Origin: a virus
Length of the DNA stretch: 64,000 nt
Virus record (IMG/VR): IMGVR_UViG_3300045919_000302
Span: 1 to 64,000 of that record
Direction: 5' to 3' (one strand)
The translations under genes were made by a program, and so were the position numbers. Shown piece after piece: positions 14,990 to 41,713 of this stretch. The notes beneath the pieces are model-generated. The model worked only from the letters and a program-made list of their open reading frames with translations. It was not told the origin of the DNA and ran no database searches. Numbering within the stretch: the first letter of the stretch is position 1; every line of letters begins with the position of its first letter.

Positions 14990-14993
14990 ATCC

Positions 14994-15021
14994 TTCGGGT
15001 GCCGCGATCCTGGCGGCCGTA
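14994..15021. repeat. 28-bp spaced palindrome, copy 3 (one mismatch)
   Basis: TTCG GGT GCC GCGATCCT GGC GGC CGTA; 15000-15022 is identical to 55842-55864. Confidence 0.8.
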
Positions 15022-15023
15022 GA

Positions 15024-15749: not shown

Positions 15750-16216
15750 TACTTCTCTTCTTCCTCTTCGGACTCGGGCTCTTCTTCCGACTCTTCGTCT
15801 TCAGGCTCTTTTTCGGACTCCTTGTCTTTGGAGTCGTCATCAGACTCTTCATCATCCTCAGCTTCGCCTTCGGATTCTTCCTCATCGTCCTTCCCATCGG
15901 CGGAGAGATTAAACAAATCCGCGATGCTCGCCATGCACTTCTTGGTTTGCTCCAGAAGCTCCTTGGCTCCCTCTCCGAAAAGAGTGTCGAGCTTGTCCTG
16001 GTGGCCACGCTTGAGCAGCTGGTCGATTGCCTCAACGGCCGTGAGAGCGGAGTTCTGAGCCATGGACATCAGCGACTCGACTTCCTCGAATCGATCTTCA
16101 ACCGTTCCAACTTCCCCGGTGTCTTGATCAATCTCCGGATCTCCGGTCTTGTCTTCATCTTCCAGGAACCGCTCTTCGAGTTTCTTCACATTGCTGATAA
16201 CGGATTCAACGGACAT
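15749..16216 (-). CDS. Highly acidic protein, prohead core-like
   Basis: CAGGAG SD, MSVESV start, E/D/S-rich tail. Confidence 0.6.
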   Translation of the reverse strand: MSVESVISNVKKLEERFLEDEDKTGDPEIDQDTGEVGTVEDRFEEVESLMSMAQNSALTAVEAIDQLLKRGHQDKLDTLFGEGAKELLEQTKKCMASIADLFNLSADGKDDEEESEGEAEDDEESDDDSKDKESEKEPEDEESEEEPESEEEEEK

Positions 16217-21458: not shown

Positions 21459-24305
21459 TCAGTTGTGGAAGACCATGACTCCGTCGTCGGAGTCCACGAA
21501 GGAAACGGATCCATTCATCTCCGCATCGCGAGCATAGGCTTCGTAGTCGATCGAGAAGAGATTGAGCTTCATGATCTCTTCGATGCCGTAGCCCAGCTCA
21601 TCCATGAAATAACCGACTGCGTCCTTTTGGAGCTGCTCCTGAATATCACTGGAGTACCGATCCCTGAGTTCTTCGCGAGCATCGTCAATGACCTTTTGAA
21701 CCGAGTCGGCCCCATCCGTCAGAGTGAGCATCCGATCCTTAATCTCTTGAACCCTGCTTTTGTCTTCAGGGTCCTCTTCGTCGAGACCGTCCAGCTCATC
21801 TTGAAGTTGAGCCAGCTCCTCTTCAGCGGCTTCTGCCGCCTCAAGTTCTTCCTCCTTGTCGGCATCGGAGATGACCTCGCTATCTTTCATGTCTCCCACG
21901 CGACGATCAGCTTCTTCCGAGGCGATCAAACGCATGTCGGTTTCGGACATCGTCAGATAGTTCGCCGCATTGTCTTTGCTCAGTCCGCCCGTCTCTTCGA
22001 GGAAGTCAGCAGCCCAGTCTTCCTTGGACTTGGCCTGACCCATGTAAGCGTCTTTCGCCTGGTCGATCGTGGCTTTGCTGTCGTTCATCAGATCGATGTA
22101 GGCTTCAAGTATCTTGCGATCTTCCTCGTCAAGATTGAGCCAGTCCCAGACCTTCTCGTCGATGCTGGACTCGCTGTAGTACCGTTCCGGGAATCCCTCG
22201 TAGCCCTGGAACATCGGTTCCGGATCTTCTTCATCCTTGTGAAGCTCTTTGCAAGCTTCGAGGAACTCATCCTTGTCGGCGTAGTCTTCAAGATTGAGCC
22301 ACGCGCCCTTGATGCTGCCGTCGTTGTATTTGGCGTAGGTGCCGACGTAAACAGCCGGGCCAGAAGGGGCCTTGGCTTCGGTCTTCACCGACTCCTTGAC
22401 CGGCTCTTCGGTGCCTTTGCCACAATTCGGGCAGACGCCCACGTGCGGATCCGCGACGGTCGTTTCATCGTCCTTGATGCGGATCGGCTCGCCACAGTGG
22501 GGGCAGTTGTAACCGTCGGATGACTCAACCTTCTCCTCGCCATTCTTCAGCAAGGTCTTGCCCATGACCAACTCGTTGAAGCTGCCCAGGCCCATCTTGA
22601 CCTTGGTGTCTCCACCGCTCAATACCACTTCTCCGCCATCCATGTGGACGTGAAGCTTCTGGCCCACCTTCCACTCGGGCTGATCCGGCACCGGAGCGAG
22701 AACCGAATACACGGCCACATCGCGGGCCTCAGGGAGGGTGTAGCCGTACTTCTTCCCGTTGAACTCGACGGAAAGGGACTCGCCCACATCTCTGCGAACG
22801 TCGCCCTCCTTGTTGTAAGTCTTCAGGCACATCGAGTCGTCGCAAACGTGATCATCGCCCGACTTGTGAGAGGTGCTCTTTCCGCAGACGACGCACTCCC
22901 CGGTGACAAGCTCATTCTCTGCCATTCCCTTTACGGCGATCTCTGCCTTCTCGGAATGAGAGTCGTTGTATTTCTTAACGGCATCGGCAAGAGATGCAGT
23001 CTTAGGCATCTCAAGAGCCTTCATGAATTCAGCACCACCCATGCGCTGAGTTACTTTCCCATCCTTGTCTTTAACAACAACGCAAACAGGATCCTTAGCT
23101 TCAACCACCGACTCTTTGCCTTCGTCCGCAAGTTTGTCGTTCAGCGCGTCCACGAGTTCATCGCGATCCACGACGAACATCCAGGTATCATAGGAGGCAT
23201 TGCCGTAGGCGTAGTTGGACTTGCCATCCCAGTAAGCTTCGTTGAGGTCCTTCGTAACTTTCGCCTTGTCCTCTTCGGAGAGGCCAGCGACAAGTGCCTT
23301 GAAGATATCTTCCACTTCCTCGCCGTTCACGATCCCGGAATTGCCGTCGAGCTGAGTCTCAACCTCTCCGATCTGACCAGATCCACCGACCGCGTTCATC
23401 GGATAGAACACCCCAGACGCCTCGGGTTTCGCCAGACTGCTCAGGATCGCAGTGATGTCGTCCTTCGAGAGCCCGGCCTTGAGAGCGTCCTCTACCGGAC
23501 CCCATAGCTCGTTGTTGGTCATGTTGATCGCGAGGAGCGCATCCGTCGTGATGGTTTGACCGAGAGCGTCCAGGTAGTCCTGGCCGGAGTCCTCGTGCTC
23601 GGTTTCATATTCAGTATTGGACTTCACATTCTCATCAATCCAGGCCGCCAGCGCTTTCATCTGACTTTCCTTATCAGAGAAGCTGATCTCGCCCTGGGAC
23701 TCCTTGATGGGCTTGCTGCGCTTCTTGACGGATTCGTCTTTCGATCCTTCGCCGCCCTTCACGTATACAGCGACATGATAATAGTGTTCAGAGTCGTTCA
23801 TCGAGTGACCCGCGTCTTCGATTTCCTTCTTCACGACTTCGCTGACCTGGAGACCGTCTTCTCCAATTGCCTGTAGGATTTCATTCGCAAGGTCTTCAGT
23901 GTTGCCGCCACAAGCGGAGTAGGTCACTTCTTCTTCGATGGCGTCTTCAGAGACTGAGTCGCGCTTGACGGCTCCGCCAACAATCGAAGAAGGCAAAAGA
24001 TCGGCTTCGCCGTCCACCTTGGCACTCAGAACCTCTTTGCCGGTGACAACCAGCGTAACGTCCAGAGAGGTGACAACCTGATGATCGTTGTCGGCCTTGT
24101 CGGCGTCAGCTTCCAGTTCAGTCGAGATCTCATAGCCCTGTTGGGCGAGCATCTCGATCGCGTCATCCACAGCTTCTTTCTGGGTCATGCCGATGCCCAC
24201 GGAAACGTCGTCCCACTTCGAGTGAGAGGTCCCGCGACCCTGGAAGTACTGGGAGTGTTCCATGCCGATGTCTTCGATTTCAAATTCAACGATCTTTTTG
24301 CTCAT
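21459..24305 (-). CDS. Multidomain acidic protein with C-terminal ArdA antirestriction domain
   Basis: VYVGTYAKYNDGSIKGAWLNL...EDPE.MFQ.YEGFP...IDYEAYARD; zinc ribbons; xxE|S/A linkers. Confidence 0.8.
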   Translation of the reverse strand: MSKKIVEFEIEDIGMEHSQYFQGRGTSHSKWDDVSVGIGMTQKEAVDDAIEMLAQQGYEISTELEADADKADNDHQVVTSLDVTLVVTGKEVLSAKVDGEADLLPSSIVGGAVKRDSVSEDAIEEEVTYSACGGNTEDLANEILQAIGEDGLQVSEVVKKEIEDAGHSMNDSEHYYHVAVYVKGGEGSKDESVKKRSKPIKESQGEISFSDKESQMKALAAWIDENVKSNTEYETEHEDSGQDYLDALGQTITTDALLAINMTNNELWGPVEDALKAGLSKDDITAILSSLAKPEASGVFYPMNAVGGSGQIGEVETQLDGNSGIVNGEEVEDIFKALVAGLSEEDKAKVTKDLNEAYWDGKSNYAYGNASYDTWMFVVDRDELVDALNDKLADEGKESVVEAKDPVCVVVKDKDGKVTQRMGGAEFMKALEMPKTASLADAVKKYNDSHSEKAEIAVKGMAENELVTGECVVCGKSTSHKSGDDHVCDDSMCLKTYNKEGDVRRDVGESLSVEFNGKKYGYTLPEARDVAVYSVLAPVPDQPEWKVGQKLHVHMDGGEVVLSGGDTKVKMGLGSFNELVMGKTLLKNGEEKVESSDGYNCPHCGEPIRIKDDETTVADPHVGVCPNCGKGTEEPVKESVKTEAKAPSGPAVYVGTYAKYNDGSIKGAWLNLEDYADKDEFLEACKELHKDEEDPEPMFQGYEGFPERYYSESSIDEKVWDWLNLDEEDRKILEAYIDLMNDSKATIDQAKDAYMGQAKSKEDWAADFLEETGGLSKDNAANYLTMSETDMRLIASEEADRRVGDMKDSEVISDADKEEELEAAEAAEEELAQLQDELDGLDEEDPEDKSRVQEIKDRMLTLTDGADSVQKVIDDAREELRDRYSSDIQEQLQKDAVGYFMDELGYGIEEIMKLNLFSIDYEAYARDAEMNGSVSFVDSDDGVMVFHN

Positions 24306-24316
24306 GGCCCTGCTCC

Positions 24317-27300
24317 TTATTCCTGTTCCGGTTGGTCGTCGAGAATGGCGTCAACGGCCTTCTTCACTTCAGTTGCAAAATCCGACTCGTCGAGCGTAGC
24401 GACCAGCTGGTCGAACGTGTTGCCGGCCTGGTCGTAGGCGTAGTCCTCGACGAAGTCGTCACTCTTGAACGGAGAGACGTCGTCCAGCAACCAGAAGGCC
24501 CAGTTCCAGCTTGATCCGGCTTCCTGGATGCCGTCATAGATGTTCCGGTCATAGAGAGCGGCCGGCTCAAGGTCTCTCGACACTCCGCCGCTTTCGATAT
24601 GGATGTAAGCGGCCATCGCCTCGGATCCGGTGTAGGAATCTAATCCGCTGATGTCCGCTTCCACTGTAAAATGGTCAGACAGCTTTCCAGCCTTGGCTCC
24701 TTCCTGGTCGATCACTTCTTTCACGAAAGAAACGATTCCAGCCCTCGCGCTTTCCATGTTCTTGTCGGCGTACTCACGCGAAGCGAACAACTGGATGGTA
24801 TTACGCAGGTCTTTAATCACCTCTGGCTTGAGGCGGAACGCCTTCTGGACACCGAGTTCGGAATCAGCCTCTTCAGGGCTTACCATTTCGATATCACCCG
24901 AGTAGCCGTACTTCTTAAGGGCCGCTTCGAGTTTAGGGGTCAGCTCGTGCATATCTCCCAGATCATCTCCGGAGGACTCAGTGGTCTGCTTTAAAATCTT
25001 CTTGGCAGAATCGGTGTCGCCTGAGCGGACGAACTTACCGGAAAGGCTCTTGCCCATCGCGGCTTTCTTCTCCTTGGTCATGGACTTACCAGGGTGCGCC
25101 TGAGCAGGAGCCTGGACAGACTCCTCACTTGGGAGAAGGGCTTTCAGTTTATCCACGGAGAGCGGCTCGTCATTCATGTCCCAAAGCTTGCCGTTCCAAC
25201 TGACTTTCCCGACCTGCTTATCCCCAGACATGATCTTGCTGAGAAAATTACCGCCGCCCAAATTATACTTCTGAGCGTACTTCTTGACCTCGTCTCCCAG
25301 CTTGCCCACGTTGCTGGACGTGATCTGAACGCTTTCAGAATCGGATCCAGGAAGGGGCTTATTCGGGTCCTGACCGAAGTCCGGATTGCCAACGTTGGTC
25401 ATCACTAAAACAAGGCTTCCGGAATTCTCTCCGGATTCACTCATGCCCGAGCCCATGAGCTTGATGCCCTTCTCGAAGTCCTTGGCGGTCTCTTTGCTTC
25501 CGGAGTCCTTGAGATCCGGAATCAGAACCTCTTTGAGATAGTTGATGAACTCTTCCCTAGAGAAGTCGTCAGCAGACGAAGCGCCCTCAATGAACTTCAC
25601 GAGGGTCTCAAAGTCCTTCGCCGTCTCAAACCGCTCCATCTCTTCCAGATCCGGGATGAGCGTGCCCTTGAGGTAGCTGACGAAAGATGCCTTGCCGTCT
25701 TTCTTCTTGGCCTCATGCATATCGTCGTGATCTTCACGGCCGGCGATCTGGCACTTCGCGCAGAGCTTGTCACCCGGCTCGGCAACGAGGCGTCCGCATT
25801 GAGAACAGTGCTCGCCATCGCCATCAGCGTCGCGCCCATCCAGATTGTCCTGGGCGAAATCCCGGGGATCCCCGCCGGAATAGACGGTACTCTCAATGAT
25901 GATCATTCCCGACTCATCGCCCATGTCGGCGACGTAAGGGTTGATCTCTTTGAACTCCTTGGAGACGTTCGTCAGGATGTCGCCAACTTCCTCTTCGTAG
26001 TCGCCGTCCCAGAAACCAGCCCCGTGACCGTTCCGGGTCAGCCAGAAGTCGTGGCCCAGCTGTTCAAGGTCAGCAATGCCACCTTCGCCACGGCGACACT
26101 CCAGGTTTCCGATGTCGTAGCCGGCCTTCTCAAGCGCGGCCTGGGCCTTGTCGTAGAACTCATCACAGTCCTTCTCGGCCTGAGTCACGGAGTCAGCCGA
26201 GATATCGGCGATGGAATAGTTCCAGTCCATGGGCTCGCCGCCTTCGGGTGTGGACTCGTCGGTAGACGACCAGAGCGCCGTTTCCAGGTACTGGGAGACC
26301 ATAGGCGAGAGCTTCTTCTGAGCTTCGGTCATGTCCAGATCCCGCTTAACGCCGTCCGCGTTGTCGCTGACCACGCTCACGAGCTGGTCGAGGGTGCCCT
26401 TGAAAGGCTTGCCGCCTTCCTTCTCCCAGGCCGCGAGGATCCGCTCTGCGACCTTCTTCACATCCAGGGTGGTCTTCACCTTGTGGAGCATGGCGTAGAG
26501 ATTTTCTTTGCCGACTGCAAAACTGAACAGATCGTCTGCGTCTGCCGTGTCCTTCATTCTGGCGTCTTCGAGTTTGGGCTTAACCCCGGAACTGGACCCG
26601 GAGGCGAAGATGTGATCGCGGATGCTCGCGGCATCGCCCTCTTTCGCGCCGGGGAAGTCGGCGAGCATCTCGTGGAATGCGTCCTTCCAGTTCTCAAAAA
26701 TCCCGTCCGCGTTGACGGCCCAGTCCACAAAGGCTTCCTTGAAGCGTTCGACTTCGGTGTATTCCTTGAGTCCAGTAATGGAGGCGATCGTGCCGGAGGA
26801 GAGGCTACGAATCTCCTGCTCCAGCTTGCCGCTCATGTCTGACTCGCCCATTGCCTGCTCGACGGCCTTGTCCAGGCTTTCGACCATGATGGAAAGAATC
26901 TGGTGGGCTTCTTCTTCCTCGACCTTACCCTCGCGAATCTGCTGAGCCATGTAGAGCGCGTCGTCCTTGACCTTGCGGTAGTCGGCGTACTCGGGCTCCT
27001 TCTGTTCTGCGACGGGCTTCTTGACGCCGAGGATCTCGGCGAAGTCCTCGTCGAGCGCGAGACTGGAAGACGAGAAATCGGGAAGCTCGGGGAGATCTTT
27101 GAACCCGCATTCGCTGACGGGCTTCTCGACCGGCACCTTCTTGCTTTCGGTGGTAACCTTTTTCTCACCCAGAATGGTGATCAAACTGTCCACCAGCTTG
27201 GCCGCGTTCTCAAAGCCCCGAATCAGATTCATCTTCTCGCCCATCTTACCCTCCGTCAGATTCGCCAGGTACCCAATCGAGGAAAGATGAATCCTTCTCC

Positions 27301-27544
27301 GACTGCCCGGCTTGATGTGCATCCGCTTGCGGATCTTCGCACGCCTCTTGGCCATTCGTTTGTACCGCGAGGTCTTCCTGCGGCGTTTCGCCATTCTCTT
27401 GAGTCTTGCCTTACGCTTACGATAGTACCGCTTCCGCTTCATGCGGACACGAGCCGGTGTACGCTTAGACCGCGTAACGCGAACTTCGTACAACCAACTC
27501 TCAATCAGCAGATTCAGAATAGATGGCTCGACCACTTTTTGCAC
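24317..27544 (-). CDS. Multidomain protein with gp68-like basic N-terminus, putative core-anchored polyprotein
   Basis: R/K-rich first ~90 aa, located after portal; later domains include ETALWSS...GHDFWLTRNGHGAGFWD and GNPDFGQ...LGGGN. Confidence 0.7.
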   Translation of the reverse strand: MQKVVEPSILNLLIESWLYEVRVTRSKRTPARVRMKRKRYYRKRKARLKRMAKRRRKTSRYKRMAKRRAKIRKRMHIKPGSRRRIHLSSIGYLANLTEGKMGEKMNLIRGFENAAKLVDSLITILGEKKVTTESKKVPVEKPVSECGFKDLPELPDFSSSSLALDEDFAEILGVKKPVAEQKEPEYADYRKVKDDALYMAQQIREGKVEEEEAHQILSIMVESLDKAVEQAMGESDMSGKLEQEIRSLSSGTIASITGLKEYTEVERFKEAFVDWAVNADGIFENWKDAFHEMLADFPGAKEGDAASIRDHIFASGSSSGVKPKLEDARMKDTADADDLFSFAVGKENLYAMLHKVKTTLDVKKVAERILAAWEKEGGKPFKGTLDQLVSVVSDNADGVKRDLDMTEAQKKLSPMVSQYLETALWSSTDESTPEGGEPMDWNYSIADISADSVTQAEKDCDEFYDKAQAALEKAGYDIGNLECRRGEGGIADLEQLGHDFWLTRNGHGAGFWDGDYEEEVGDILTNVSKEFKEINPYVADMGDESGMIIIESTVYSGGDPRDFAQDNLDGRDADGDGEHCSQCGRLVAEPGDKLCAKCQIAGREDHDDMHEAKKKDGKASFVSYLKGTLIPDLEEMERFETAKDFETLVKFIEGASSADDFSREEFINYLKEVLIPDLKDSGSKETAKDFEKGIKLMGSGMSESGENSGSLVLVMTNVGNPDFGQDPNKPLPGSDSESVQITSSNVGKLGDEVKKYAQKYNLGGGNFLSKIMSGDKQVGKVSWNGKLWDMNDEPLSVDKLKALLPSEESVQAPAQAHPGKSMTKEKKAAMGKSLSGKFVRSGDTDSAKKILKQTTESSGDDLGDMHELTPKLEAALKKYGYSGDIEMVSPEEADSELGVQKAFRLKPEVIKDLRNTIQLFASREYADKNMESARAGIVSFVKEVIDQEGAKAGKLSDHFTVEADISGLDSYTGSEAMAAYIHIESGGVSRDLEPAALYDRNIYDGIQEAGSSWNWAFWLLDDVSPFKSDDFVEDYAYDQAGNTFDQLVATLDESDFATEVKKAVDAILDDQPEQE
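25452..25684 (-). repeat. Intragenic tandem domain duplication
   Basis: FVSYLKGTLIPDLEEMERFETAKDFE versus FINYLKEVLIPDLKDSGSKETAKDFE. Confidence 0.8.
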
Positions 27545-27606: not shown

Positions 27607-29388
27607 TTACTTTCGGTTGGTCGAGCGGTCTACCGAGTGCTGAAGTTCTTCCATCATGCGCTTGAGCTGCTCCCACTTTTTGCCAGACGTTTTGTCCTGC
27701 GCTTGGATCCGATCAGTGCGTTCAATCAGCGAGTCGGTGTTGCGCTTGATCTGACTGAGGATTGGGAGGCTCGTGTCTTTCGAAGCCGTGACGGGTTCTT
27801 CTTCTCCGCCGGACATCGGTTCACTGGCCTCAGGCTCACTCGGAGAACTCGGAGTGCCACGCTTGGCAAGGGCCTTCTCCAGATCCCCAGTGCCGCCAGA
27901 CGGAACTTCGGACTCATCCGAGTCACCCTTGAGATTCATTTCTCGGATCTGATCATCCGACCAGCCCAAGACATGCGTCTTGATCCAGTAGTCCGGGGCC
28001 CACGGTTTGTACTTGTCGGCCAGATCCAGCTCGGCTGCGCGGATCTCCAGCTGCGCCAGCTCGAAGATCGCCGACGGGACCGTCATCTCGACGTCAAACT
28101 CAACGGCGTCCGGGTTGACCCCCTTGGCCGCGAGATGCACCTTGCAGATGTGCTTGATGCCGTTTCGGAACTCACGCTGAACGCGAATGACCGTACGAGC
28201 GAAACGAGAGTCCTCGGCCGAGAGGTTAGTCTTGGCGGTGGACTCTTCGTAAGTGAGGAAGGGCTTCGGAACTTTGAGCGCCGCGAACAGTTTGTTCTCA
28301 AAGAACTTGATGTCTTCGATGTGATCGTAAATCGGCCCCTGGAGGGATTCAACCCGAGTGGACTCTTTGCCGTCGCGCATTGGCAAGAAGAAGTCTTCAT
28401 CAGCGGATAGGACGTCGAACTTCCTGTCCATTTTCCCGCTGTTCGGATTCACAAATTTCTGCTTCTTGAACGACTGCTTGACCCTCTGCAAGTAGCTCAT
28501 GGACTCATTGGGCGGGATCCCAGAAACGTCCACGTAGAATGCGTAGCGCGAGGGGGCTCGGCTCAAGCGATGCATGATGATCGAGTCTTCCAGGAGAAGG
28601 AGACGCTTGAAGACCCAGCGAGCCGGCTCACCGATCCCGTGGCCGTAGGGGCTGAGGGGGTTCTTTCCCATCAGCCTCATGTGAACCACTTCCCAGCTTT
28701 CGAAGATCGCGCAGTCTTTTACGGGTTGAGCGGGCTTTCTCCGACCAGTGGCTCGAAACTCCAGTTCCCCCAGGAACTGCTCAGAGGAAACCCTGAATGA
28801 TCCCCTTGGGTCATAAATGAATCCGAGCGTGTCGATTTCATGGTCCTCGCGACCATCTTCGAGTTTGCGGCCGATCTCCTTGGGGATCTCGATGCGCCTC
28901 ACGGTCGGGGGCGCGAGCATGTTCACAGCTACCACGCCGGCTTTAGCCTTCGCCACGATCTCTGCGTACAGGTTTCCGTACTTACAGAGCATGCGGACCC
29001 AGCTCCAGACCCTTTGTTCGATGTCGAGGCGTTTGTGCAAAAGATCATCCAGCTCTGCGCGGACGTCTTCATCTTCGGCTTTGATCCAGACGCTCTTTCC
29101 TGTTTGCGCATCTACCTGGGATGCGTCATCCGCATAAATATCGATTGCCGAAGAAATCAGCGGACTGTCGTCCTGATCTTCGTAATCCATGAAGCTGGCG
29201 ACGAGATCGGCGTCGATCCGTAAGTGGTCCGTAAGCCCAGGGATCGATCCGCTGTTGATTCCGAAGCTCTGATTTGATTGCGTACCGAGGCCCTGATATC
29301 CCGCGACCGGAACATAAGGAGGTCGGTGGTACTCGGTGTCCCGAAAGAATTGCCGGATAAATTTGATCGAATCAGAACCTACGCCCAT
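27607..29388 (-). CDS. Portal protein, T4 gp20-like
   Basis: ISSAIDIYADD, LLEDSIIMHRLSRAPSRYAFYVDV, EDFFLP.R, IEDIKFF..KLFAALKVP, EDSRFARTV. Confidence 0.95.
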   Translation of the reverse strand: MGVGSDSIKFIRQFFRDTEYHRPPYVPVAGYQGLGTQSNQSFGINSGSIPGLTDHLRIDADLVASFMDYEDQDDSPLISSAIDIYADDASQVDAQTGKSVWIKAEDEDVRAELDDLLHKRLDIEQRVWSWVRMLCKYGNLYAEIVAKAKAGVVAVNMLAPPTVRRIEIPKEIGRKLEDGREDHEIDTLGFIYDPRGSFRVSSEQFLGELEFRATGRRKPAQPVKDCAIFESWEVVHMRLMGKNPLSPYGHGIGEPARWVFKRLLLLEDSIIMHRLSRAPSRYAFYVDVSGIPPNESMSYLQRVKQSFKKQKFVNPNSGKMDRKFDVLSADEDFFLPMRDGKESTRVESLQGPIYDHIEDIKFFENKLFAALKVPKPFLTYEESTAKTNLSAEDSRFARTVIRVQREFRNGIKHICKVHLAAKGVNPDAVEFDVEMTVPSAIFELAQLEIRAAELDLADKYKPWAPDYWIKTHVLGWSDDQIREMNLKGDSDESEVPSGGTGDLEKALAKRGTPSSPSEPEASEPMSGGEEEPVTASKDTSLPILSQIKRNTDSLIERTDRIQAQDKTSGKKWEQLKRMMEELQHSVDRSTNRK

Positions 29389-32538: not shown

Positions 32539-32838
32539 TTAAACCTGATCCAGATCGCCGTTCATCTCAGCGCCCATTTCTGGCTCGGGAAGCTCTTCGG
32601 CTTCCGCGCCTTCGTCGCCGTCCTTCTCTTCCGCTTCAGGGTTGAGAGCTTCCTTGACTTCGGCGAGTTTTGCGTCGAGAGCAGCTTCGCCCTCGCCTTC
32701 TTCGCCTTCGTGCCGGCCTTCTACTGCCATGACGAGGTCACCGAGAAGCTTCTCGTGGTCGATCTTTTTCTTCTTCTTGCCTTCAGAAACTTCTTCCGGA
32801 AGACCAAAACCATTCACCGATTCACTGATCTGTTTCAT
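32539..32838 (-). CDS. Tagged acidic protein
   Basis: MKQISESVNGFGLPEEVSE. Confidence 0.7.
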   Translation of the reverse strand: MKQISESVNGFGLPEEVSEGKKKKKIDHEKLLGDLVMAVEGRHEGEEGEGEAALDAKLAEVKEALNPEAEEKDGDEGAEAEELPEPEMGAEMNGDLDQV

Positions 32839-32847
32839 ACTGTCTCC

Positions 32848-33957
32848 TTACGTGGTTAACTCGGGCGCAACCTCTGCGACCATGTCACTTCCCAAGATCT
32901 GAATAACCTTTTTTACGATCCCTTCATCATTGGTGTGCAGATTGACATGATCAGCTTCACCAGATGGTCCCACCTGGATAAACGCTTCCGGTTCAAGCTT
33001 TAAAACGGCGTCTCGCATCGCCTGCGTTATCTCACTATCTGGATTGAGGAAAATGGTATGCATCGGCTCGTCATCTACACGCTTCATCTTCAGTGCGTGG
33101 ATGTGCTCGGATGGGACGTCAGGAAGACTGAACGGGATGTCTCCAGTCTTTTTGTTCCCACGGCGGAAGCGATTCTCGTTCTCCCCATGTTCAGCATCGG
33201 TCGCGTCCCAGTAGGTGTAACTGTCGTCGTGACCATGTTGAAGCGCGATCTTGTAGAACGGGGAACTCGGCGAAAGACGCTTCGAAATGTAGAAGTAGAA
33301 GTCGTTGCTCTTCGAGTAATCCTCAAAGTAATCTTGCTCCGGCTCGGTGATGCACCACTTCGTCCCAGAGCCGTAGAGCATTGCGGCCTCTTTGGTAGTG
33401 ATGTGGTAAACCTTCCAGTACTTGTCCTCGGCGACGAGTTTGGCCCCCGATGCCTTCTTCTCTTTCTTCTCCTGGCTCTTCGACTTGCTGGCCTTCGTCT
33501 CATCGACGAAAGCCTTGAACTCGGCCCAGGTCTTCCACTTGTCGATGTCCTTCTTGGTGGCATCCTGGATCTTCGGCTTCAAAAGCTTGAAGTCGGTGAT
33601 GTAGTCGGTGATCTCGTCATCAGGAGCCCCTTGATCCTTGAAGCGCTTGATAGAGGTTTTGAAGTCCTCTTCGAGACTTTCATTCTTGGGCCATTGATGT
33701 GTTTTCTCGTATGCCCCAAAGATCGTGTTGCATCTGGTCTGAGCACGCTCTTCGGATTCAAGCGGGCCATCGCGATAAACCTGGCGCTCATCGTCGAATA
33801 TCTGGGCAATCCAGCCATTGGAATACAGACCGACCATGGCCGTGATGTAGTCCGTGAAATTCCGGTACGACCCACGGATGCACGAATCCCTCGCCTTCCA
33901 CCCATCGTCAGACTCGAATACCGGCAGGCCGAACCTATCTACGCCCTCGGTGAACAT
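32848..33957 (-). CDS. Tagged multidomain protein
   Basis: MFTEGVDRFGLPVFES; internal KNE|S; YGSGTKWCIT domain. Confidence 0.7.
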   Translation of the reverse strand: MFTEGVDRFGLPVFESDDGWKARDSCIRGSYRNFTDYITAMVGLYSNGWIAQIFDDERQVYRDGPLESEERAQTRCNTIFGAYEKTHQWPKNESLEEDFKTSIKRFKDQGAPDDEITDYITDFKLLKPKIQDATKKDIDKWKTWAEFKAFVDETKASKSKSQEKKEKKASGAKLVAEDKYWKVYHITTKEAAMLYGSGTKWCITEPEQDYFEDYSKSNDFYFYISKRLSPSSPFYKIALQHGHDDSYTYWDATDAEHGENENRFRRGNKKTGDIPFSLPDVPSEHIHALKMKRVDDEPMHTIFLNPDSEITQAMRDAVLKLEPEAFIQVGPSGEADHVNLHTNDEGIVKKVIQILGSDMVAEVAPELTT

Positions 33958-34973
33958 TAGTCGCGGTCCCGATGGAGGCTGATCGAAGCGCCGCCCCAGC
34001 CGCCACTCACGCTGTAGTTGAAGTAATTCCCATCAGCCGCCTTCACGAGGTAGATCGGCGAGTAGATGTGGTGAGCCTTGTCTTCGTGGAAGCCGGCGAG
34101 CCTGAACTCTTTGAAGTTCTTGATCACCTCGGCGTCCTGCACGTTGAACTGGGCATCGCGGACCATGCCGGTGTCGCGCAGCTCGCCCTTCGCGTTGATG
34201 ACGTTCTTTTTGAGCCAGGCGATCCCTTGTTGGGATTGCTCGGGCGATATGTCGATGAGCTTGCCTTCTTCGAACATCGCGAGGATCTCGTGAAGGATGT
34301 ATTTCATCTCCTCGTCCATGTCCTGCTTCCAACCCCGGGCCAGATCCGACAGGCGGTGAGCGACCCCGAGGATCTCCTGCTTCGTCCACATCGGCTTGGT
34401 CTTCAGGGCCTCGTACTTCTTGAGCGTAGCGCGGGCGGTGCCTTCCTGGATCTGCACGGACTCGTCCACCTCCCCGACTTCGGCATCGTAATGATTCTGA
34501 GCAGACGTCAGGGCCTTTTCGAAGGTCACCTGAGGGTCCTTATCGCACCAATGCATAAGGTCCGCGAGAAGGTCCACTACGGCCTCTTCACCCTCGCTCC
34601 CTGTGTGCGCAGAGAATGCCTTGAGGGCGACATCAGCGGCGGCAACGCTGTCTTCCTTGGATTCGACCACCGACTCCACTGCCTTCTTCTGACCGGAATG
34701 AGGATCCTTCGGGTCGAGGTAGCGAGCGTCTCGCGAGCCCTTGTCCGGAATGATCTCGTATTCCTGACGATCATTCTCGTACTGGTCGCCGAGCTTCTCA
34801 GCGAGAAACGCCTCAGCATCTTCAGCTGAATCGAACTTCTGGCCATCAAACATGATCGTGTTGGTCCAGTCAACGATGTGCCACTTCTCCTTGGCTTCGA
34901 TCTGGGTGCTCTCTGTCAGCTCGCGCTCGATCGGGAACCCAAACTTGTCTTCGACCATCATCTTCTTCGCCAT
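33957..34973 (-). CDS. Tagged multidomain protein
   Basis: MAKKMMVEDKFGFPIERELTES; linkers AVE|SVVE|S and VDE|S; DLLADLMHWCD domain. Confidence 0.7.
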   Translation of the reverse strand: MAKKMMVEDKFGFPIERELTESTQIEAKEKWHIVDWTNTIMFDGQKFDSAEDAEAFLAEKLGDQYENDRQEYEIIPDKGSRDARYLDPKDPHSGQKKAVESVVESKEDSVAAADVALKAFSAHTGSEGEEAVVDLLADLMHWCDKDPQVTFEKALTSAQNHYDAEVGEVDESVQIQEGTARATLKKYEALKTKPMWTKQEILGVAHRLSDLARGWKQDMDEEMKYILHEILAMFEEGKLIDISPEQSQQGIAWLKKNVINAKGELRDTGMVRDAQFNVQDAEVIKNFKEFRLAGFHEDKAHHIYSPIYLVKAADGNYFNYSVSGGWGGASISLHRDRD

Positions 34974-34983
34974 TTGATCTCCG

Positions 34984-36114
34984 TTATCCGATTGGGTACG
35001 CCGACCCTGATTTTGCTGCCATCTCTTGAAGCCGGGCCGTCGGTCGGCCCAGTCCGCTCAAGATCGTGAAGAGGTAGATTGTGCTTTGGGATCCAGCCTC
35101 ATAAACTCCGCGATGGAGCTTTGTCTCCGGGCCCTGGGCCATCAGTCGGTTAAGAGAGCCAAAAGCGCCCTCAAGAGCCTCCTGCGTAACCGAAGCAAGC
35201 CCCTCGCCGTTACTGACAAGAAGCCCTGCCCCCACTTTCGCTTTCGAGAGATCGAGTCCTTCAACGAGAAGCCCCTTCTTCACGTTCTCACGAACCGCGT
35301 CGGCGACATCCGTCGGCTTCTCGATTCGCTCAAGCTTTGTCCTTCCAAAGCTAAGAATGCCAGATTCGAGGACGGTCCGATAGTCTTTTGGATCGCAGAC
35401 CACGTGACACTCTTTGCTGTCGATCGCACACAATTCGTTGAAGCTGCTGAACAGGGCGGCGATGTTTTTATTTGCGGTCTTCCATACGTCCACCACGCTG
35501 GCGGTGCCGTAGAGCTGCATCACTCGGGCGTTGTCCACGATGACCAGGGGCGAGAGATGGCCCTTCTCGGCCATGCCCAGGAGGGGCAGAAGGGTCTCCA
35601 GGGCGTTCCGCTGCACAGCCGAGGATTCATCCTTGGTCGGGAGGGTGACGATCACGCCGACGCGCTTCTCGGGATTCTGGACGCCGATGGAAGCCATGTA
35701 CCCCTTGGCGATCTTCACGAGCGGAAGGGCCGCTCCGGATCCAGTGCCGCCGCCGGCACCGACACAGATCAAGATCTGCTCGACGTCTTTTTTGAAGGAG
35801 GACTGGATCAGACGATGAATCTCTTCGCTCTCGGCCTCGACCGCTGCACGGCCCACGGCCGGATCCTTGCCGGCCCCACCATCGCCCCTCAGGACATGAC
35901 GATTCGCCTCGGGTACGGAGAGCCGCTGCATGTCGCGGGTCGTGGTGTTCACGATGGCCACGCGCCGGTAGCCCAGACCGTAGAAGGTGTCCGCAAGATT
36001 ACCGCCGCCCTGGCCAGCGCCAAGGAAGGCCATCTTCACGGCAGTCTTCTTTTCTTCTGTGACGGATTCAACAGTGGCTAAAACTTCGTCATCAATCTGT
36101 GAAAGGTCAAGCAC
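34984..36114 (-). CDS. Tubulin/FtsZ-family GTPase (PhuZ/TubZ-like)
   Basis: GAGQGGGNLA, NT, GAGKDP..G, GAGGGTGSG, VDN, DPKD; GTG start at 36114 after AAGGAG. Confidence 0.9.
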   Translation of the reverse strand: MLDLSQIDDEVLATVESVTEEKKTAVKMAFLGAGQGGGNLADTFYGLGYRRVAIVNTTTRDMQRLSVPEANRHVLRGDGGAGKDPAVGRAAVEAESEEIHRLIQSSFKKDVEQILICVGAGGGTGSGAALPLVKIAKGYMASIGVQNPEKRVGVIVTLPTKDESSAVQRNALETLLPLLGMAEKGHLSPLVIVDNARVMQLYGTASVVDVWKTANKNIAALFSSFNELCAIDSKECHVVCDPKDYRTVLESGILSFGRTKLERIEKPTDVADAVRENVKKGLLVEGLDLSKAKVGAGLLVSNGEGLASVTQEALEGAFGSLNRLMAQGPETKLHRGVYEAGSQSTIYLFTILSGLGRPTARLQEMAAKSGSAYPIG

Positions 36115-36263
36115 AACGATCTCCTTTTTCCCTAACAAATTAAACTCATCTTCAGTCAGCAGAGTGTAAACCATAATTGCGGAAGCCACCATCCTGGCAT
36201 TCGCAAGCAACCCAAGCAACAACCCTTTGACTCTTTGTCATGACAAAAGGTATAAGTCAGGCT

Positions 36264-37100
36264 ATGCCAAAAGCATTGGATTTCACCGCAAAGCGATTCG
36301 GTCGCCTTACTGCCATACATTTCGTGGGCCGCAGTCCTTCTGGCCGAGTGTGGCTCCTCTTATGCGACTGCGGCGCAACGATAGAAAGGCCGGTATGGGC
36401 TTTCAAGAAACCAAGAGTCAAAAACGTTTCCTGTGGATGCAGGGGACTTCCATTCCCCACTAACGGTCAAAGATTTGGGAGGTTGATATCGACAGGCCCA
36501 GGATCGAATGGGAAATGGTCTTTTCGCTGCGATTGCGGAAAGGAAATCCAAAGGCCGCGCTATGCGGTTCAAAACGGCAAAACTAAAAGTTGCGGATGCT
36601 TGTGGACCGAGACAGCAAAGGAAAAACAAAAGAAATACTGCCATTCGCACGGCTACAGCAAGACCGCCATCTACAGCAGATGGAAAAACATGCTGTCCCG
36701 CTGTGAGGATCCAAACCACATCAATTTTAACGACTACGGCGGAAGAGGCATAAAAGTTTGCGAACGGTGGCATAACTTCGAGAATTTTCTGGCAGATATG
36801 GGAAACCCGTTCACCGACAACAAGAGTAAGGCTCTTCAAATCGATCGCATAAACAACAACGGAAACTACGAACCTGGAAATTGTCGATGGGTAACACCCA
36901 GAGAAAACTGCAACAATAGAAGAAACAACGTACTGATCACATGGAACAACAGAACCCTTACTCTTGTTCAGTGGTCCAGGGAGACCGGCATTCCCAGAGA
37001 CACACTAAGTCACAGAATAAAGAGCAGCCGTCTCAGCATCGAGGAGATTCTCACTGTTCCCGTAGGGGCGCACCCTTGGAGGAGGTCCCGTCACCCATAA
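36264..37100 (+). CDS. HNH homing endonuclease
   Basis: Two FGRL..W.x.CDCG..SCGC units; YGGRGIKVCERW; IDRINNNGNYEPGNCRW; opposite strand, AT-richer. Confidence 0.9.
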   Translation: MPKALDFTAKRFGRLTAIHFVGRSPSGRVWLLLCDCGATIERPVWAFKKPRVKNVSCGCRGLPFPTNGQRFGRLISTGPGSNGKWSFRCDCGKEIQRPRYAVQNGKTKSCGCLWTETAKEKQKKYCHSHGYSKTAIYSRWKNMLSRCEDPNHINFNDYGGRGIKVCERWHNFENFLADMGNPFTDNKSKALQIDRINNNGNYEPGNCRWVTPRENCNNRRNNVLITWNNRTLTLVQWSRETGIPRDTLSHRIKSSRLSIEEILTVPVGAHPWRRSRHP

Positions 37101-37116
37101 CGTCCTGCTGTGCCCC

Positions 37117-37144
37117 TACGGGGGCCATAATCCTGGCGGGCGTA
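37117..37144. repeat. 28-bp spaced palindrome, copy 5
   Basis: TACG GGG GCC ATAATCCT GGC GGG CGTA. Confidence 0.85.
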
Positions 37145-37156
37145 AGTTACGATAAC

Positions 37157-37196
37157 AAAAAAGCCCCACCCACCCGCTAAGGTGAGAGGGGCTTTT
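37157..37196. terminator. Bidirectional terminator
   Basis: AAAAAAGCCCC...GGGGCTTTT between convergent genes. Confidence 0.75.
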
Positions 37197-37217
37197 ATAT
37201 CCTCCTGGCGGGGATCT

Positions 37218-37364
37218 TCACCAGAAAGAAGGTGGTGGATTGCTCGATTGAGGCACTGGATCCTCGTCAGCGCATGGCCGGCACGGGATTAGGTACAGGC
37301 CCGTTGAGTCGCGCTTCTTCTTTGTGCCATTGCAGTCAGGACATTTTTCATCATTATTTTCCAT
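37218..37364 (-). CDS. Small zinc-finger protein
   Basis: MENNDEKCPDCNG...CRPC; GAGGGG SD. Confidence 0.5.
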   Translation of the reverse strand: MENNDEKCPDCNGTKKKRDSTGLYLIPCRPCADEDPVPQSSNPPPSFW

Positions 37365-37549
37365 TTTATCCCCCTCGTATTTTTGAGATGGCCACCCAGT
37401 ACCACGGCATAACAAGTTGTCAAGCGACGCGGATGCGCCTCCGTTGCAGAGGAAAGATATGCGATTAATGGTGGGAAATTTGAGGCGGGAAGGCTGGCAG
37501 ATCTTCAGACTGGCACGACAAACGCGCACTTGCAAGTTATCATGACTCC

Positions 37550-38074
37550 ATGAAGCTCTCTGGATCTGTCGATTGCTTTGGACTCCCGGCTGTCGAGAAA
37601 GAGGCGCAGGAGATCTCCGAGGCTGAACTGAAGAAGGCCAACTGCCCCGAGTGTGGCCCTTCCTATTTCAAGAAGACATACGCCTTCGACCCAGATATGC
37701 GCCTCATCTGGCAATGCCAGAACTGCGGCCACCAGAAGGAAGTGGGGAAGCGGGCCCCTTCACCGAAGGCTCAGCAAGCCGCGCTCGACAAGATCCGGAA
37801 GGCCATCGAGACCTCCGGAACTCCTGACCATCCGACCCGGATCGTTGAGTGGACCGTCGAGAACGACGAAGGCGGATTCATCAACTTGAAAGTCTGGGCG
37901 ATGCAGGGCGAAGACAGCAACATGCTGGGCCTCGTGTCCAAGCGCCTGCTCGGGATCCGCATCAGCCCGGTCGGGGGCGTCACCGTCTATTCAGACTCAC
38001 AGGCAAAGACGAAGTCCCAGCTGAAGGATGTCGAGAGACGCCTTCGAGATGGAACCAGGACTCACTGGTGGTGA
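37550..38074 (+). CDS. Tagged zinc-ribbon protein
   Basis: MKLSGSVDCFGLPAVE...ISE|A; CPECG/CQNCG. Confidence 0.7.
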   Translation: MKLSGSVDCFGLPAVEKEAQEISEAELKKANCPECGPSYFKKTYAFDPDMRLIWQCQNCGHQKEVGKRAPSPKAQQAALDKIRKAIETSGTPDHPTRIVEWTVENDEGGFINLKVWAMQGEDSNMLGLVSKRLLGIRISPVGGVTVYSDSQAKTKSQLKDVERRLRDGTRTHWW

Positions 38075-38458
38075 TCAGACCTTTTCGAGGGAAGTCTTCC
38101 AAGCGTCAGTCTCGTCTTGAAACCAAGTCCCGCCGTGATCCCAGAAATCCATCAAGCGAGCCTCGTTCTTGACGATCCACGATCTGATGTGAGCGAGATC
38201 TTTTGCGGATACCGACTTCGTGAATTGGCGATCCTTGTGGGCCTCCACGACCTCGGGACTCTTTGAGATCGTCATGGAGAAGAATTCACTCAACCCCGGG
38301 CGATCGGCGTAGACCTTGAGCGTGGGGATTTCTGAATGCGAAGTCCGGAGCGTCTCTTCCTTACTTCTGACGTGGAGCGAGTAGTGAAGGCCCGTTTCCT
38401 GACTGCGGAAATTAGCCATCTCAACAATCACTTCGGCGCTACGACTCAGATCGGTCAT
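38075..38458 (-). CDS. Hypothetical protein, DUF4160-like
   Basis: IVE|MANF..TGL..H..P.LKV..WI.KN..L..FW. Confidence 0.5.
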   Translation of the reverse strand: MTDLSRSAEVIVEMANFRSQETGLHYSLHVRSKEETLRTSHSEIPTLKVYADRPGLSEFFSMTISKSPEVVEAHKDRQFTKSVSAKDLAHIRSWIVKNEARLMDFWDHGGTWFQDETDAWKTSLEKV

Positions 38459-38464
38459 GACGTT

Positions 38465-38493
38465 ACTCTACCTTAAATGACGCGAACTGTCAA
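38465..38493 (-). promoter_or_regulatory. sigma70-type promoter, probably giving a leaderless transcript
   Basis: TTGACA-17-TAGAGT, 6 nt before ATG 38458, no SD. Confidence 0.7.
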
Positions 38494-38501
38494 ACCTGAA
38501 G

Positions 38502-41117
38502 TCAGGCTTCGTCGTCCAGGCTGCGCCACTTGACGCCCTCGGGATCCTTCTCAGACTTCACGATCTTCGCCCACTCAGGATTGCTTTCGACGTTCGACAG
38601 AATGGTATCGATGTCCGTCACCTGAGAAGGGAACCAATCCTTGTCCGTCTTGACGTAACTGATCGCGAGATCCGGGAAGCGCTCCAGCATGTCCTGGTAC
38701 ATTTCGGAGGCTGAGCTGCCTTCATAGAAGCCCTTTCTCGCCTTGGGTAGAACATCCCGCTCGAACATCTCCAGGGTCGGAGGGCAGACGATCCGCTGGA
38801 TGTTGCCGATCTTCTGGTTGCCACGGCCGTTCTTCTTCCAGGCGACGTAGATCTCGAAGCTCTTCTCTTTCTTTACCTCGGTGATCGGAGTTGCATAGCG
38901 CTCGCGAAGGACCGACTCGACCAAGCGACCACCCCTTGGGGCTGATTCAGCTTGGCGCTTGGGTGCGTACATGTCGAAGATCCGGACCCTGGTCGAATCA
39001 ATAGGACTACCTGGAGCGTTAACGAAGTCGAGGGCTTCATCATAAGTTGAAAAGGTCTTTGCGCGGTAGAGGTGCTCGCTCCAGCCGCTCTTCGTGTGCT
39101 CGGTGTAATACCTGGGCACCGCCCTGAATTTCGTCTTGATAGCCCAGCATTCCTTCGGGATCAAGGACTCGACCACTGCGTTTTCAAGCTTCTCCAGGAA
39201 GCGGTCCATGCCGTAGTGAAGCGGCGACGGGGCGTCGGAAAGTGTAGCCCAAGTGTAATCCTGGGTCTCGGAGTTCAACCTGGGCTTGAACTCATGATCC
39301 ACCGGAATCACGTAGAAGTGGAACTTGAATCCGCCCTCTTCGTACTCGTCCACGAGCCGTGGGTTCATGGGGCCTGTGTAGCCCGCCTCTTCCGCGACCT
39401 CGCGCTTCAGTGCTTCGAGCGGAGTCTCGCCTTCATCGATCTTTCCACCGAAGGTGCTCCAGGTATTCGGCTCCGGGCAGTCAGGCCCCCGGTGCGCAAA
39501 GAGATACCGACCGGTGTCCTTGGCGTAGAAGAGTCCGCCGGCCCCGGCGAGCCTCCAGGTGATTCCGTCCGGATCCGTGTAGGCGGCCTCCTTGAGGCCG
39601 ACCTTATTGAATTTGGAATCAAACTTCTCTTTTGAGATCCCGAACTCGCTGATCCAGTCCCCATCCACAAAGGCGCAGTCGGCGTTGACTCCGGATCGGA
39701 TCGCCCGGTTCAGGCGGTGCTGCCCATCCAGAACGTAGTTGGATCCGCCCACAACCAGAACGATGCTGGCCTCCAGATCTGCCTCAGGCTTGTCTTTGAG
39801 TTCCAGGCTCGACTCCTGCTGATGGATCTTTTGGAACGTCGCGGCCTCTTCGGGAGAGACCGACCGGAGCTTGGCATTCTTGACTGCGGCATCGAACTTT
39901 TTGGCAAAGTCTGGCCACTGATCGTCATCAATCATGGAGAAGAATTGGCCGATCGCTGACTCGTGGTCCTCGGGATGGATCTCAAGACGTTCGCCAAAGG
40001 GACGATTGGGTTGCGACCATAGGGCAGCTGCGTCGTCCGACTGTGCGTCACTTTTGCGGAGCTTCCTGTTCTTTAGTTTTTCCGCATATTGATACATCGC
40101 CGTAGCAAGACCTTTACGTCGATGTTCCGGATCCACAGAGATTCCCCTCGAATAGAATCCGTGGGCAGACTTTCTGTTTGCAATGTGGGCGTGGGCAACT
40201 TCTTCACCATCCTTGGTCACACTGATTCTCAGATCATCATCGCCAGTGTCGATAGCGCAATCCTTGCAACCAGCATCTGGCGCTTCCTGATGAGTTATCC
40301 TGTACCCTTTGTTTTCCAGATCCTCTAATCCCTCAGGGATCCACGCCTTCTGCTTCTTCAGCATGTCGAAAGCACCTTTTACACTGGTGTCGTATTTTTG
40401 ATCATCCGATTCGAAGAACTTACCCGCAGGGTAGCGTCCCGGCTTCTTGAAGACCTTGTCGATGATCTTCTTGAAGACCCCATTACATCGTCTGATGTCG
40501 AAGAGAAATTCTCCCTTTTCATCCCACACTCCGTACTTACCCCGAGCGGCGGTGATCGGAATCACTAAACTCACGTCATCAATATCAAATACGACCTGAT
40601 GTTTGTCACCATCGGAGATATGCTCAGCCTCTACAGCACGATCAACTTGGAGTAGGACGGCGTTTTTCCCGTAGTCGTCGTGCCCGCCAGGGCTGGCGTT
40701 ATCCAATGTAAAAGCGAACACCAGATTCCCTGGATTAGTTCGCTCATGAAACGTCAAACCAAGATTCTCTGGCGCTGCACCTTCAACGGTCCCACTCACA
40801 AACGCCTTTGCGAAAGCAATCGGATCCTTACTGGTATGACGAACAAGCCACGTGCCTCGCGGAAGCCATTTTGGCTTGCGAAAAAAAATAGTAGTGCTCG
40901 GCTCATTCCCTTCCGCTTCGCGGATAAAATCCGAAATCCAATCTTCGCGTTCATGTGGATCTCCGTCTTCAATCTCTTCAGGGACGGAGTCTTCGGCTTC
41001 TTTTCGGGTCTGCTCATACCACTGGTCATAAGATCCGGCCATGTCGTAGAACACATCCAGCTCATCCGACTCGACAAGTGGCATTCCAAAATGATCCAAG
41101 GACTCAGAGAGCATCAC
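38502..41117 (-). CDS. Tagged polyvalent protein: ART-like, GNAT, ParB-like, NUDIX and other domains
   Basis: MLSESLDHFGMPLVES; VDPEHRRKGLATAMY (GNAT); VLDGQHR (ParB-like); GGKIDEGETPLEALKREVAEEAG (Nudix box). Confidence 0.85.
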   Translation of the reverse strand: MMLSESLDHFGMPLVESDELDVFYDMAGSYDQWYEQTRKEAEDSVPEEIEDGDPHEREDWISDFIREAEGNEPSTTIFFRKPKWLPRGTWLVRHTSKDPIAFAKAFVSGTVEGAAPENLGLTFHERTNPGNLVFAFTLDNASPGGHDDYGKNAVLLQVDRAVEAEHISDGDKHQVVFDIDDVSLVIPITAARGKYGVWDEKGEFLFDIRRCNGVFKKIIDKVFKKPGRYPAGKFFESDDQKYDTSVKGAFDMLKKQKAWIPEGLEDLENKGYRITHQEAPDAGCKDCAIDTGDDDLRISVTKDGEEVAHAHIANRKSAHGFYSRGISVDPEHRRKGLATAMYQYAEKLKNRKLRKSDAQSDDAAALWSQPNRPFGERLEIHPEDHESAIGQFFSMIDDDQWPDFAKKFDAAVKNAKLRSVSPEEAATFQKIHQQESSLELKDKPEADLEASIVLVVGGSNYVLDGQHRLNRAIRSGVNADCAFVDGDWISEFGISKEKFDSKFNKVGLKEAAYTDPDGITWRLAGAGGLFYAKDTGRYLFAHRGPDCPEPNTWSTFGGKIDEGETPLEALKREVAEEAGYTGPMNPRLVDEYEEGGFKFHFYVIPVDHEFKPRLNSETQDYTWATLSDAPSPLHYGMDRFLEKLENAVVESLIPKECWAIKTKFRAVPRYYTEHTKSGWSEHLYRAKTFSTYDEALDFVNAPGSPIDSTRVRIFDMYAPKRQAESAPRGGRLVESVLRERYATPITEVKKEKSFEIYVAWKKNGRGNQKIGNIQRIVCPPTLEMFERDVLPKARKGFYEGSSASEMYQDMLERFPDLAISYVKTDKDWFPSQVTDIDTILSNVESNPEWAKIVKSEKDPEGVKWRSLDDEA

Positions 41118-41668
41118 TGGGCCACTCCATCGACCGAAAATGCAGCGGGACTTCCTCCATGCTCCATGTGCTCGGCAAAGGCCATGACCATCTCGCCGTT
41201 CTCCTGGTGGAAGTTTCGGGCCTCCTGATCGGAATAGATCTCTTTCAGATGCGGGGTCGCATACTTCTTCCAGAGGGCCATCCGGTCGTCGAGATTTGAG
41301 AGCTGGGCATCGAGCTTCTCGTTACCAAGCTCGAACCAGAAGAGGCCCTTGTACTCGTGTTTCTTGATGTCCTTGTGGCCGACGATCTTTAGCTCGTGCT
41401 GCTTGAAGAGCATGTTGGAATGCTGGATGCGCTCGTACTCGTCGAAGTTTCCGTGCTCATCGCAACCGACGTAGTGGAACCCGCCGCCGTGGACGCCGGA
41501 ATCAGGGATGTAGAGAATGTGGCCCGAGGTCTTCCCGTCCGTCACGAGGAGGATGTCACCTGGCTTCCCGGTGGACTCGATTTCGTCCTTCCAGCTCCAG
41601 GAGGTCTTTCCGTCCTTCTTGGTTTCAGGGATGGGCATGCCAAAGCGGTCAAGGGATTCAGAAAGCAT
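41114..41668 (-). CDS. Tagged protein
   Basis: MLSESLDRFGMPIPET. Confidence 0.7.
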   Translation of the reverse strand: MLSESLDRFGMPIPETKKDGKTSWSWKDEIESTGKPGDILLVTDGKTSGHILYIPDSGVHGGGFHYVGCDEHGNFDEYERIQHSNMLFKQHELKIVGHKDIKKHEYKGLFWFELGNEKLDAQLSNLDDRMALWKKYATPHLKEIYSDQEARNFHQENGEMVMAFAEHMEHGGSPAAFSVDGVAQ

Positions 41669-41713
41669 AGGGCACATGATACCCCGAGATCCGTCCGACC
41701 TGAAGCTGTTTTG

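Follow-up and report, generated by a model that had tools for sequence, protein, structure and literature searches.

A short peptide tag shared by unrelated proteins of an uncultured T4 relative and its possible role in prohead loading

Leaders shared by otherwise unrelated proteins are textbook knowledge for the T-even phages, and in encapsulins a short portable peptide at a terminus of the cargo loads diverse proteins into an HK97-fold shell, whatever the cargo is. In phage T4, the internal proteins Ip1-3 share only an N-terminal leader, which directs their packaging (PMC12373910, PMC3012670). The targeting and processing determinants of the T4 leader are separable, and the prohead protease gp21, whose activity is confined to proheads, cleaves behind the Glu of L/I-x-Glu sequences (PMC9026906). 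The phiKZ-like and SPN3US giant phages have a related prohead protease that likewise cleaves behind Glu, and their ejection proteins bear propeptides that are thought to be head-targeting (PMC5694885). Here we describe a short peptide tag with the core D-x-F-G-[LMI]-P, one and the same tag that sits on about a dozen unrelated proteins of an uncultured T4 relative (IMG/VR record IMGVR_UViG_3300045919_000302). The window, that is, the whole stretch of DNA analyzed, is the first 64 kb (64,000 nucleotides) of this 149,291-bp virus contig with a guanine-cytosine (GC) content of 55%, and the DNA comes from wetland metagenomes.

We regard the tag as a sequence-distinct, position-independent counterpart of the capsid-targeting sequence (CTS) of T4, a reading to which we give a probability of about 0.58. 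A first-pass annotation of the window had reported eight copies of the tag, and six-frame translation recovered every one of them at its position (six N-terminal copies, one Trp/Ser variant, and one internal copy), as listed below.

32791..32838, minus strand: N-terminal tag of a 99-amino acid (aa) acidic protein (gene 32539-32838) encoded just upstream of the terminase gene; score in a hidden Markov model (HMM) of the tag, 22.7 bits
33913..33957, minus strand: N-terminal tag of a 369-aa protein (gene 32848-33957); 24.2 bits
34926..34973, minus strand: N-terminal tag of a 338-aa protein (gene 33957-34973); 19.5 bits
37550..37597, plus strand: N-terminal tag of a 174-aa zinc-ribbon protein (gene 37550-38074); 25.3 bits
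41070..41114, minus strand: N-terminal tag of an 871-aa multi-domain protein (gene 38502-41117; start at 41114/41117); 23.9 bits
41624..41668, minus strand: N-terminal tag of a 184/187-aa protein (gene 41114-41677); 24.7 bits
10694..10747, minus strand: N-terminal tag in its Trp/Ser variant, on a ~198-aa protein (open reading frame (ORF) 10151-10792); 21.9 bits
11890..11934, minus strand: internal tag of a 763-aa protein (gene 11278-13569), residues ~557-574; 23.5 bits

Tagged homologues of the 99-aa protein occupy the same position in three relatives (G001, L003, and L129), a G002 homologue of the 369-aa protein, which has a weak PcfJ-like match, is also tagged, and Trp variants of the tag stand in the position orthologous to that of the ~198-aa protein in G001 and L134. 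In the 338-aa protein 4-5 residues precede the tag, which begins at codon five or six. Three extra copies lie beyond the window at genome positions 78928, 79515, and 84667, giving 11 copies on the contig in total. The last of these belongs to a 200-aa protein (genome positions 84644-85246, minus strand; 7145-7747 in L132), in which the tag ends three residues before the stop codon and counts among the six C-terminal copies of the clade. It was also considered as a frameshifted N-terminal tag, and this possibility was rejected: a homologue in G004 shows that the downstream gene starts later, which makes the 84667 tag the C-terminal end of the 200-aa protein before it.

The repetition of the tag is real and far above chance. 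When the motif was scored as the regular expression [DN]-x-[FW]-G-[LMIFS]-P on 213 called proteins, 10 matches were seen against 0.25 expected from composition; 200 shuffles averaged 0.2 matches and never exceeded 2. Eight of the 10 matches fell among residues 1-30, where 0.03 were expected, and the same proteins contained no reversed motif. The fuller consensus was [LFI]-x-E-[SDG]-[VLI]-[DN]-x-[FW]-G-[LMI]-P. The first-pass annotation had proposed a profile check of the tag, and an HMM built from the copies separated the true copies (12.7-26 bits) from all other six-frame ORFs (<5 bits). Its further statement that the proteins are unrelated past the tag also held, as the tag-stripped proteins had no BLASTP similarity to one another (best E-value, 0.09). 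Nearly every position of the tag differs synonymously in codon between copies, which indicates that the peptide, and not the DNA, is under selection.

Relatives were gathered by searches with the portal, tubulin, and protease and with a back-translated DNA pattern, which together yielded 13 related contigs, one of them a complete 160-kb genome with terminal repeats. These contigs hold 39 copies of the tag, 27 of them N-terminal, six internal, and six at the very C-terminus. The N-terminal copies comprise 15-18 residues up to the Glu, all six internal copies belong to orthologues of the 763-aa protein, and the C-terminal copies are on unrelated proteins that end one to six residues past the Pro of the tag. 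The tag is restricted to one phage clade. With the tag HMM, no copy was found within 10 kb of the portal gene at 77 other portal loci, those with long flanks having at most 47% portal identity, and four larger outer-group genomes gave 0-2 pattern matches each, the same as the control level. A pattern scan of IMG/VR gave ten matches, six in this clade and four that look like chance. The clade members that carry the tag range from 34 to 55% GC and probably infect different hosts.

Within the clade, tags are gained and lost on homologous cargo. A 127-aa protein in the window (38075-38458, minus strand) is untagged, while in G004 and G005 the N-termini of its homologues carry the tag or a version of it with Gln/Asn; it seems that the tag has been lost or has diverged on a conserved cargo. 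Likewise, NUDIX domains are found inside the N-terminally tagged 871-aa protein here and in a C-terminally tagged stand-alone protein in L133.

The presence of a Glu next to the tag depends on where the tag stands in the protein. The first-pass annotation had noted a Glu 1-4 residues past the tag, and this was true for all eight copies in the window and, across the clade, for 31 of the 33 N-terminal or internal copies, as opposed to two of the six C-terminal ones (Fisher p = 0.0025). In 22 of the 33 N-terminal or internal copies the Glu is exactly at position +3 after the Pro, against a background of 6.4% (p about 5e-19), and in 17 of these 22 the residue at +1 is aliphatic, which gives an aliphatic-x-Glu sequence, matching the cleavage rule of gp21. 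The Glu is thus enriched only ahead of a following polypeptide, so that it matters there, as a release site predicts; a pure binding determinant would not predict a position-dependent Glu. As weak evidence, an aliphatic-x-Glu precedes five of the six C-terminal tags by no more than 15 residues.

The tagged genes of the window lie among head genes, of which the following are needed here.

19653..21284, minus strand: prohead protease (Peptidase_S77, gp21 type; Pfam 1.1e-14) whose C-terminal half is a fused, scaffold-like coiled coil
18111..19610, minus strand: major capsid protein (Gp23 family); Pfam 2.3e-66
27607..29388, minus strand: portal protein (Portal_T4, gp20 type); Pfam 4.4e-67
21459..27544, minus strand: two giant proteins of 948 aa (with an ArdA domain) and 1075 aa, encoded between the portal and the protease
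34984..36222, minus strand: TubZ-like tubulin gene inside the cluster of tagged genes, whose product is a candidate alternative receptor

The minus strand from ~42 kb down to 10 kb forms one long, structural, late-looking block. It starts with the tagged genes and the TubZ-like tubulin, the intein-bearing terminase, the Portal_T4 portal, and the two giant proteins, continues with the S77 protease-scaffold, the Gp23 capsid protein, a homing-endonuclease-like gene, and a few unknown genes, and ends with the 763-aa protein, the protein tagged with the Trp variant, the tail sheath, and the tail tube. Tagged genes are co-oriented with and packed against the terminase-portal-protease-capsid operon and also sit between the capsid and tail-sheath genes. 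The protease-scaffold fusion is a candidate for both the cutter and the receptor of the tag. Its scaffold-like half measures ~280 aa, and no separate gp22-like gene precedes the capsid gene; more than 100 S77 protease-scaffold fusions of 500-600 aa were found. The capsid protein, which shares no more than 35% identity with that of any isolate, has a conserved [LM]-G-E-D site (divided between E and D) just before the mature domain, which is kept in the clade, and a megablast search of the region against phage records gave no match.

The tag HMM found no copies, not even weak ones, in the giant proteins, the capsid protein, the protease, or the portal. Since the giant proteins, capsid protein, and protease are untagged, the tag is an add-on for a separate class of cargo rather than the general cleavage signal. 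The giant proteins share modules with tagged proteins of relatives; residues 30-96 (67 aa) of the tagged 338-aa protein recur at 54-58% identity in giant portal-adjacent proteins of G001 and P160. The N-termini of the giant proteins have hydrophobic-x-Glu motifs in the first 15 residues, like short T4-type leaders.

Several tagged proteins are large enzymes. The 871-aa protein contains GNAT and NUDIX domains, a 1325-aa tagged protein of L007 contains several GNAT domains, and a giant protein of L003 (>1434 aa) contains SprT-like and GNAT domains. A ParB/Srx-like D-G-x-H-R motif noticed by eye in the 871-aa protein was set aside, as Pfam did not confirm it. Iyer et al. predicted that polyvalent proteins are packaged and injected (PMC5512222). 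By their domain content the tagged GNAT/NUDIX/SprT-like proteins appear to match the polyvalent proteins of that study, as the tagged cargo has several unrelated effector domains per polypeptide and is encoded near virion genes.

On the reading that we prefer, the tag would be a short linear docking peptide that recruits otherwise unrelated proteins into an assembling T4-type prohead, its likely partner being the inner capsid surface or the scaffold core, which in this phage is fused to the protease. In tags with a polypeptide after them, the adjacent aliphatic-x-Glu would let the S77 (gp21-type) prohead protease release the cargo, and the freed proteins, among them the multi-domain GNAT/NUDIX enzymes, the 99-aa acidic protein, and the 763-aa protein's basic tail, would remain in the head and enter the host together with the DNA. 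We infer prohead binding, cleavage, and injection of the tagged proteins from these features. The first-pass annotation had proposed a capsid-targeting tag that the protease removes, and this proposal agreed with every computational test run (S77 protease, T4-type head, Glu, co-orientation, cargo, and shared module), except that the tag is not solely an N-terminal leader.

Several observations weigh against this interpretation. The six C-terminal and six internal copies are not predicted by the classical model, in which a leader of 10-19 residues forms the extreme N-terminus, the spacing from Pro to Glu is variable (1 to 4 residues), and two Trp-variant tags have no nearby Glu. The tubulin gene co-occurs with the tag cluster, and its product could be the partner instead. 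Late expression of the tagged genes is inferred from gene order alone; the T4 late promoter TATAAATA was found nowhere in the window. Finally, the core D-x-F-G-[LMI]-P appears unlike the T4 leader. The first-pass annotation had called the tag a candidate new signal; its core is new, but shared-leader systems as such were already known from T-even phages.

If the prohead-loading reading is true, a simple sequence rule would list the injected proteins across a clade of uncultured wetland phages, and the proteins so listed would be prime candidates for new counter-defence functions. The tag would also be a second, sequence-unrelated means of loading foreign proteins into T4-type capsids, maybe at either end of the cargo. 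Moreover, the clade would offer a natural experiment that parts targeting from cleavage, with C-terminal copies that keep the docking core without the Glu.

The sole internal carrier, the 763-aa protein, bears on both the receptor and the rival explanations. It consists of a conserved N-domain with a variable middle, the tag, and a basic, largely disordered tail of ~200 aa, and the middle of this family shares a module with the giant portal-adjacent proteins. The internal tag is kept in all orthologues found, including five more from the protein collection. We found no convincing ribosome-binding site that would make the Met before the internal tag an internal start. In the model structure, the tag region is disordered, with a predicted local distance difference test (pLDDT) score of 31-43, so that the tag is not docked within its own chain. 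A Foldseek search of the 763-aa model against viral and PDB libraries returned nothing significant. The N-domain (residues 7-130; gene 11278-13569, minus strand) was modeled as a longin/roadblock-like alpha-beta fold (pLDDT 63). Its top two structural matches were 2ea9 and 2inw, at a VIA-align Z of 6.1, below the trust mark of Z 8 (root-mean-square deviation 3.4-3.5, 89-91 residues aligned), and a profile search of the N-domain against PDB sequences gave one chance-level match only. We take 2ea9 and 2inw to be YeeU/YfjZ-type (CbeA) cytoskeleton-binding antitoxins. The YeeU/YfjZ family was reported to bind FtsZ and MreB (PMC5371832).

A more specific form of prohead loading, which we hold to be rather improbable, is that the tag is read by one dedicated receptor domain of the prohead core, in an encapsulin-like modular loading with cargo tagged at either end and protease release only where needed. 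One candidate receptor would be the longin/roadblock-like N-domain of the 763-aa head-module protein; as this protein carries the tag itself, such a receptor could build a self-linking matrix.

Among the explanations that dispense with packaging, the one that survives best, though we find it unlikely, is that the tag docks proteins on a non-head phage hub, either the TubZ-like tubulin or a filament adaptor such as the 763-aa N-domain, and thereby localizes enzymes in the infected cell. In five genomes (G000, G001, L003, P160, and L129) the tubulin gene lies inside the tag cluster and immediately upstream of the terminase, the N-domain of the only conserved tag-bearing protein has the presumed YeeU/YfjZ-type structures as its best matches, and N-terminal, C-terminal, and internal occurrence is typical of linear motifs that bind hubs. 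However, this explanation leaves the position-dependent aliphatic-x-Glu unaccounted for, and the fold match of the N-domain stays below the trust mark, on a model of pLDDT 63 with no sequence-profile support and no Foldseek match. Related tubulins in L130 (61% identity), L135, and L131 have no adjoining tag, the tags of L130 and L133 lie in the head-neck region, and cargo of the polyvalent type is expected to act at entry. In addition, where partners of FtsZ or TubZ are known, the bound peptide belongs to the tubulin and not to the partner. A co-fold of the protease-scaffold, the tubulin, and a 40-residue tagged N-terminus scored 0.00 (mark, 0.32), which counts neither way.

Two other explanations are less likely still than a tubulin hub. 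The tag might bind a host protein, such as a chaperone, protease adaptor, clamp, or defence component, the tagged proteins being cytoplasmic effectors. Short conserved motifs on diverse phage proteins can be ligands of host hubs, the cargo resembles counter-defence or takeover enzymes, and three tagged genes, at 78-85 kb of the genome, are remote from the structural ones. We nevertheless doubt this explanation, as the motif is limited to one clade of 34-55% GC, probably with different hosts, its one conserved carrier sits in the head-tail module, and the linked Glu site is left unexplained; the tag is not known to match any bacterial hub-binding motif. Lower again we place the idea that a modifying or processing enzyme recognizes the tag, which would resemble the leader of a ribosomally synthesized and post-translationally modified peptide (RiPP) or be an exosite for a cytoplasmic-maturation protease, with no packaging. 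The adjacent Glu site does suggest proteolysis, but only the prohead protease has a fitting specificity, and its T4 counterpart works nowhere but inside proheads (PMC9026906). Besides the head genes and tubulin, no enzyme gene consistently adjoins the tags in the eight contigs examined, and the C-terminal tags without Glu also speak against such an enzyme. Lastly, the conserved leader sequence of T-even phages also flanks exchangeable ip cassettes, but a DNA-level feature (recombination cassette boundary or RNA element) or chance is refuted as the sole explanation of the repeat by the synonymous codon differences and the motif statistics (10 copies against 0.25 expected), with the motif kept across 34-55% GC, and deserves next to no credence.

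Apart from the tag, the tubulin gene was found at the same spot upstream of the terminase in G001, L003, the 160-kb genome, L129, L130, and L135, and there are more than 100 tubulin homologues in metagenome assemblies. Inteins occur in packaging genes. The terminase in the window (29398-32517, minus strand) and that of L130 (11300-14344) carry an intein with an HNH domain, and L135 has a portal bearing an intein (13151-16174). Right after the capsid gene in the window, a 543-aa protein (16290-17921, minus strand) combines a Mom-like DNA-modification domain with HNH endonuclease domains. The capsid gene of the relative L029 (IMGVR_UViG_3300035696_000220; 750-2810) is in three ORF pieces, which suggests intervening elements, and that of Bacillus phage SP-15, the nearest isolate, is likewise interrupted, by an endonuclease gene.

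The closest known system is the CTS of T4 Ip1-3 and Alt, which gp21 removes. In both cases a short leader is common to unrelated, fast-evolving proteins of a phage with a T4-type head and an S77 protease, a targeting part is followed by a hydrophobic-x-Glu site, and the cargo plausibly serves counter-defence; T4 Alt also has a C-terminal propeptide (PMC9026906). Unlike in T4, about a third of the tag copies lie internally or at the C-terminus, protease and scaffold form one fusion protein, and the cargo includes multi-enzyme-domain proteins of 871 to 1325 aa and an acidic protein, not small basic proteins. Encapsulins differ in being non-viral, without a protease step or injection, and their peptides are mostly C-terminal and of another consensus. 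The propeptides of the phiKZ-like and SPN3US phages differ in that they measure 80-130 residues and have no shared short motif. As to polyvalent proteins, the multi-domain GNAT/NUDIX/SprT-like/ArdA proteins encoded beside virion genes resemble those described previously, but that work proposed no short shared loading tag, whereas some such proteins here start with one (PMC5512222). Compared with all these systems, what is new here is the sharply defined core D-x-F-G-[LMI]-P, its N-terminal, C-terminal, and internal use with Glu only where release is needed, and its presence on large enzymes of the polyvalent type in wetland phages of one tubulin-encoding clade.

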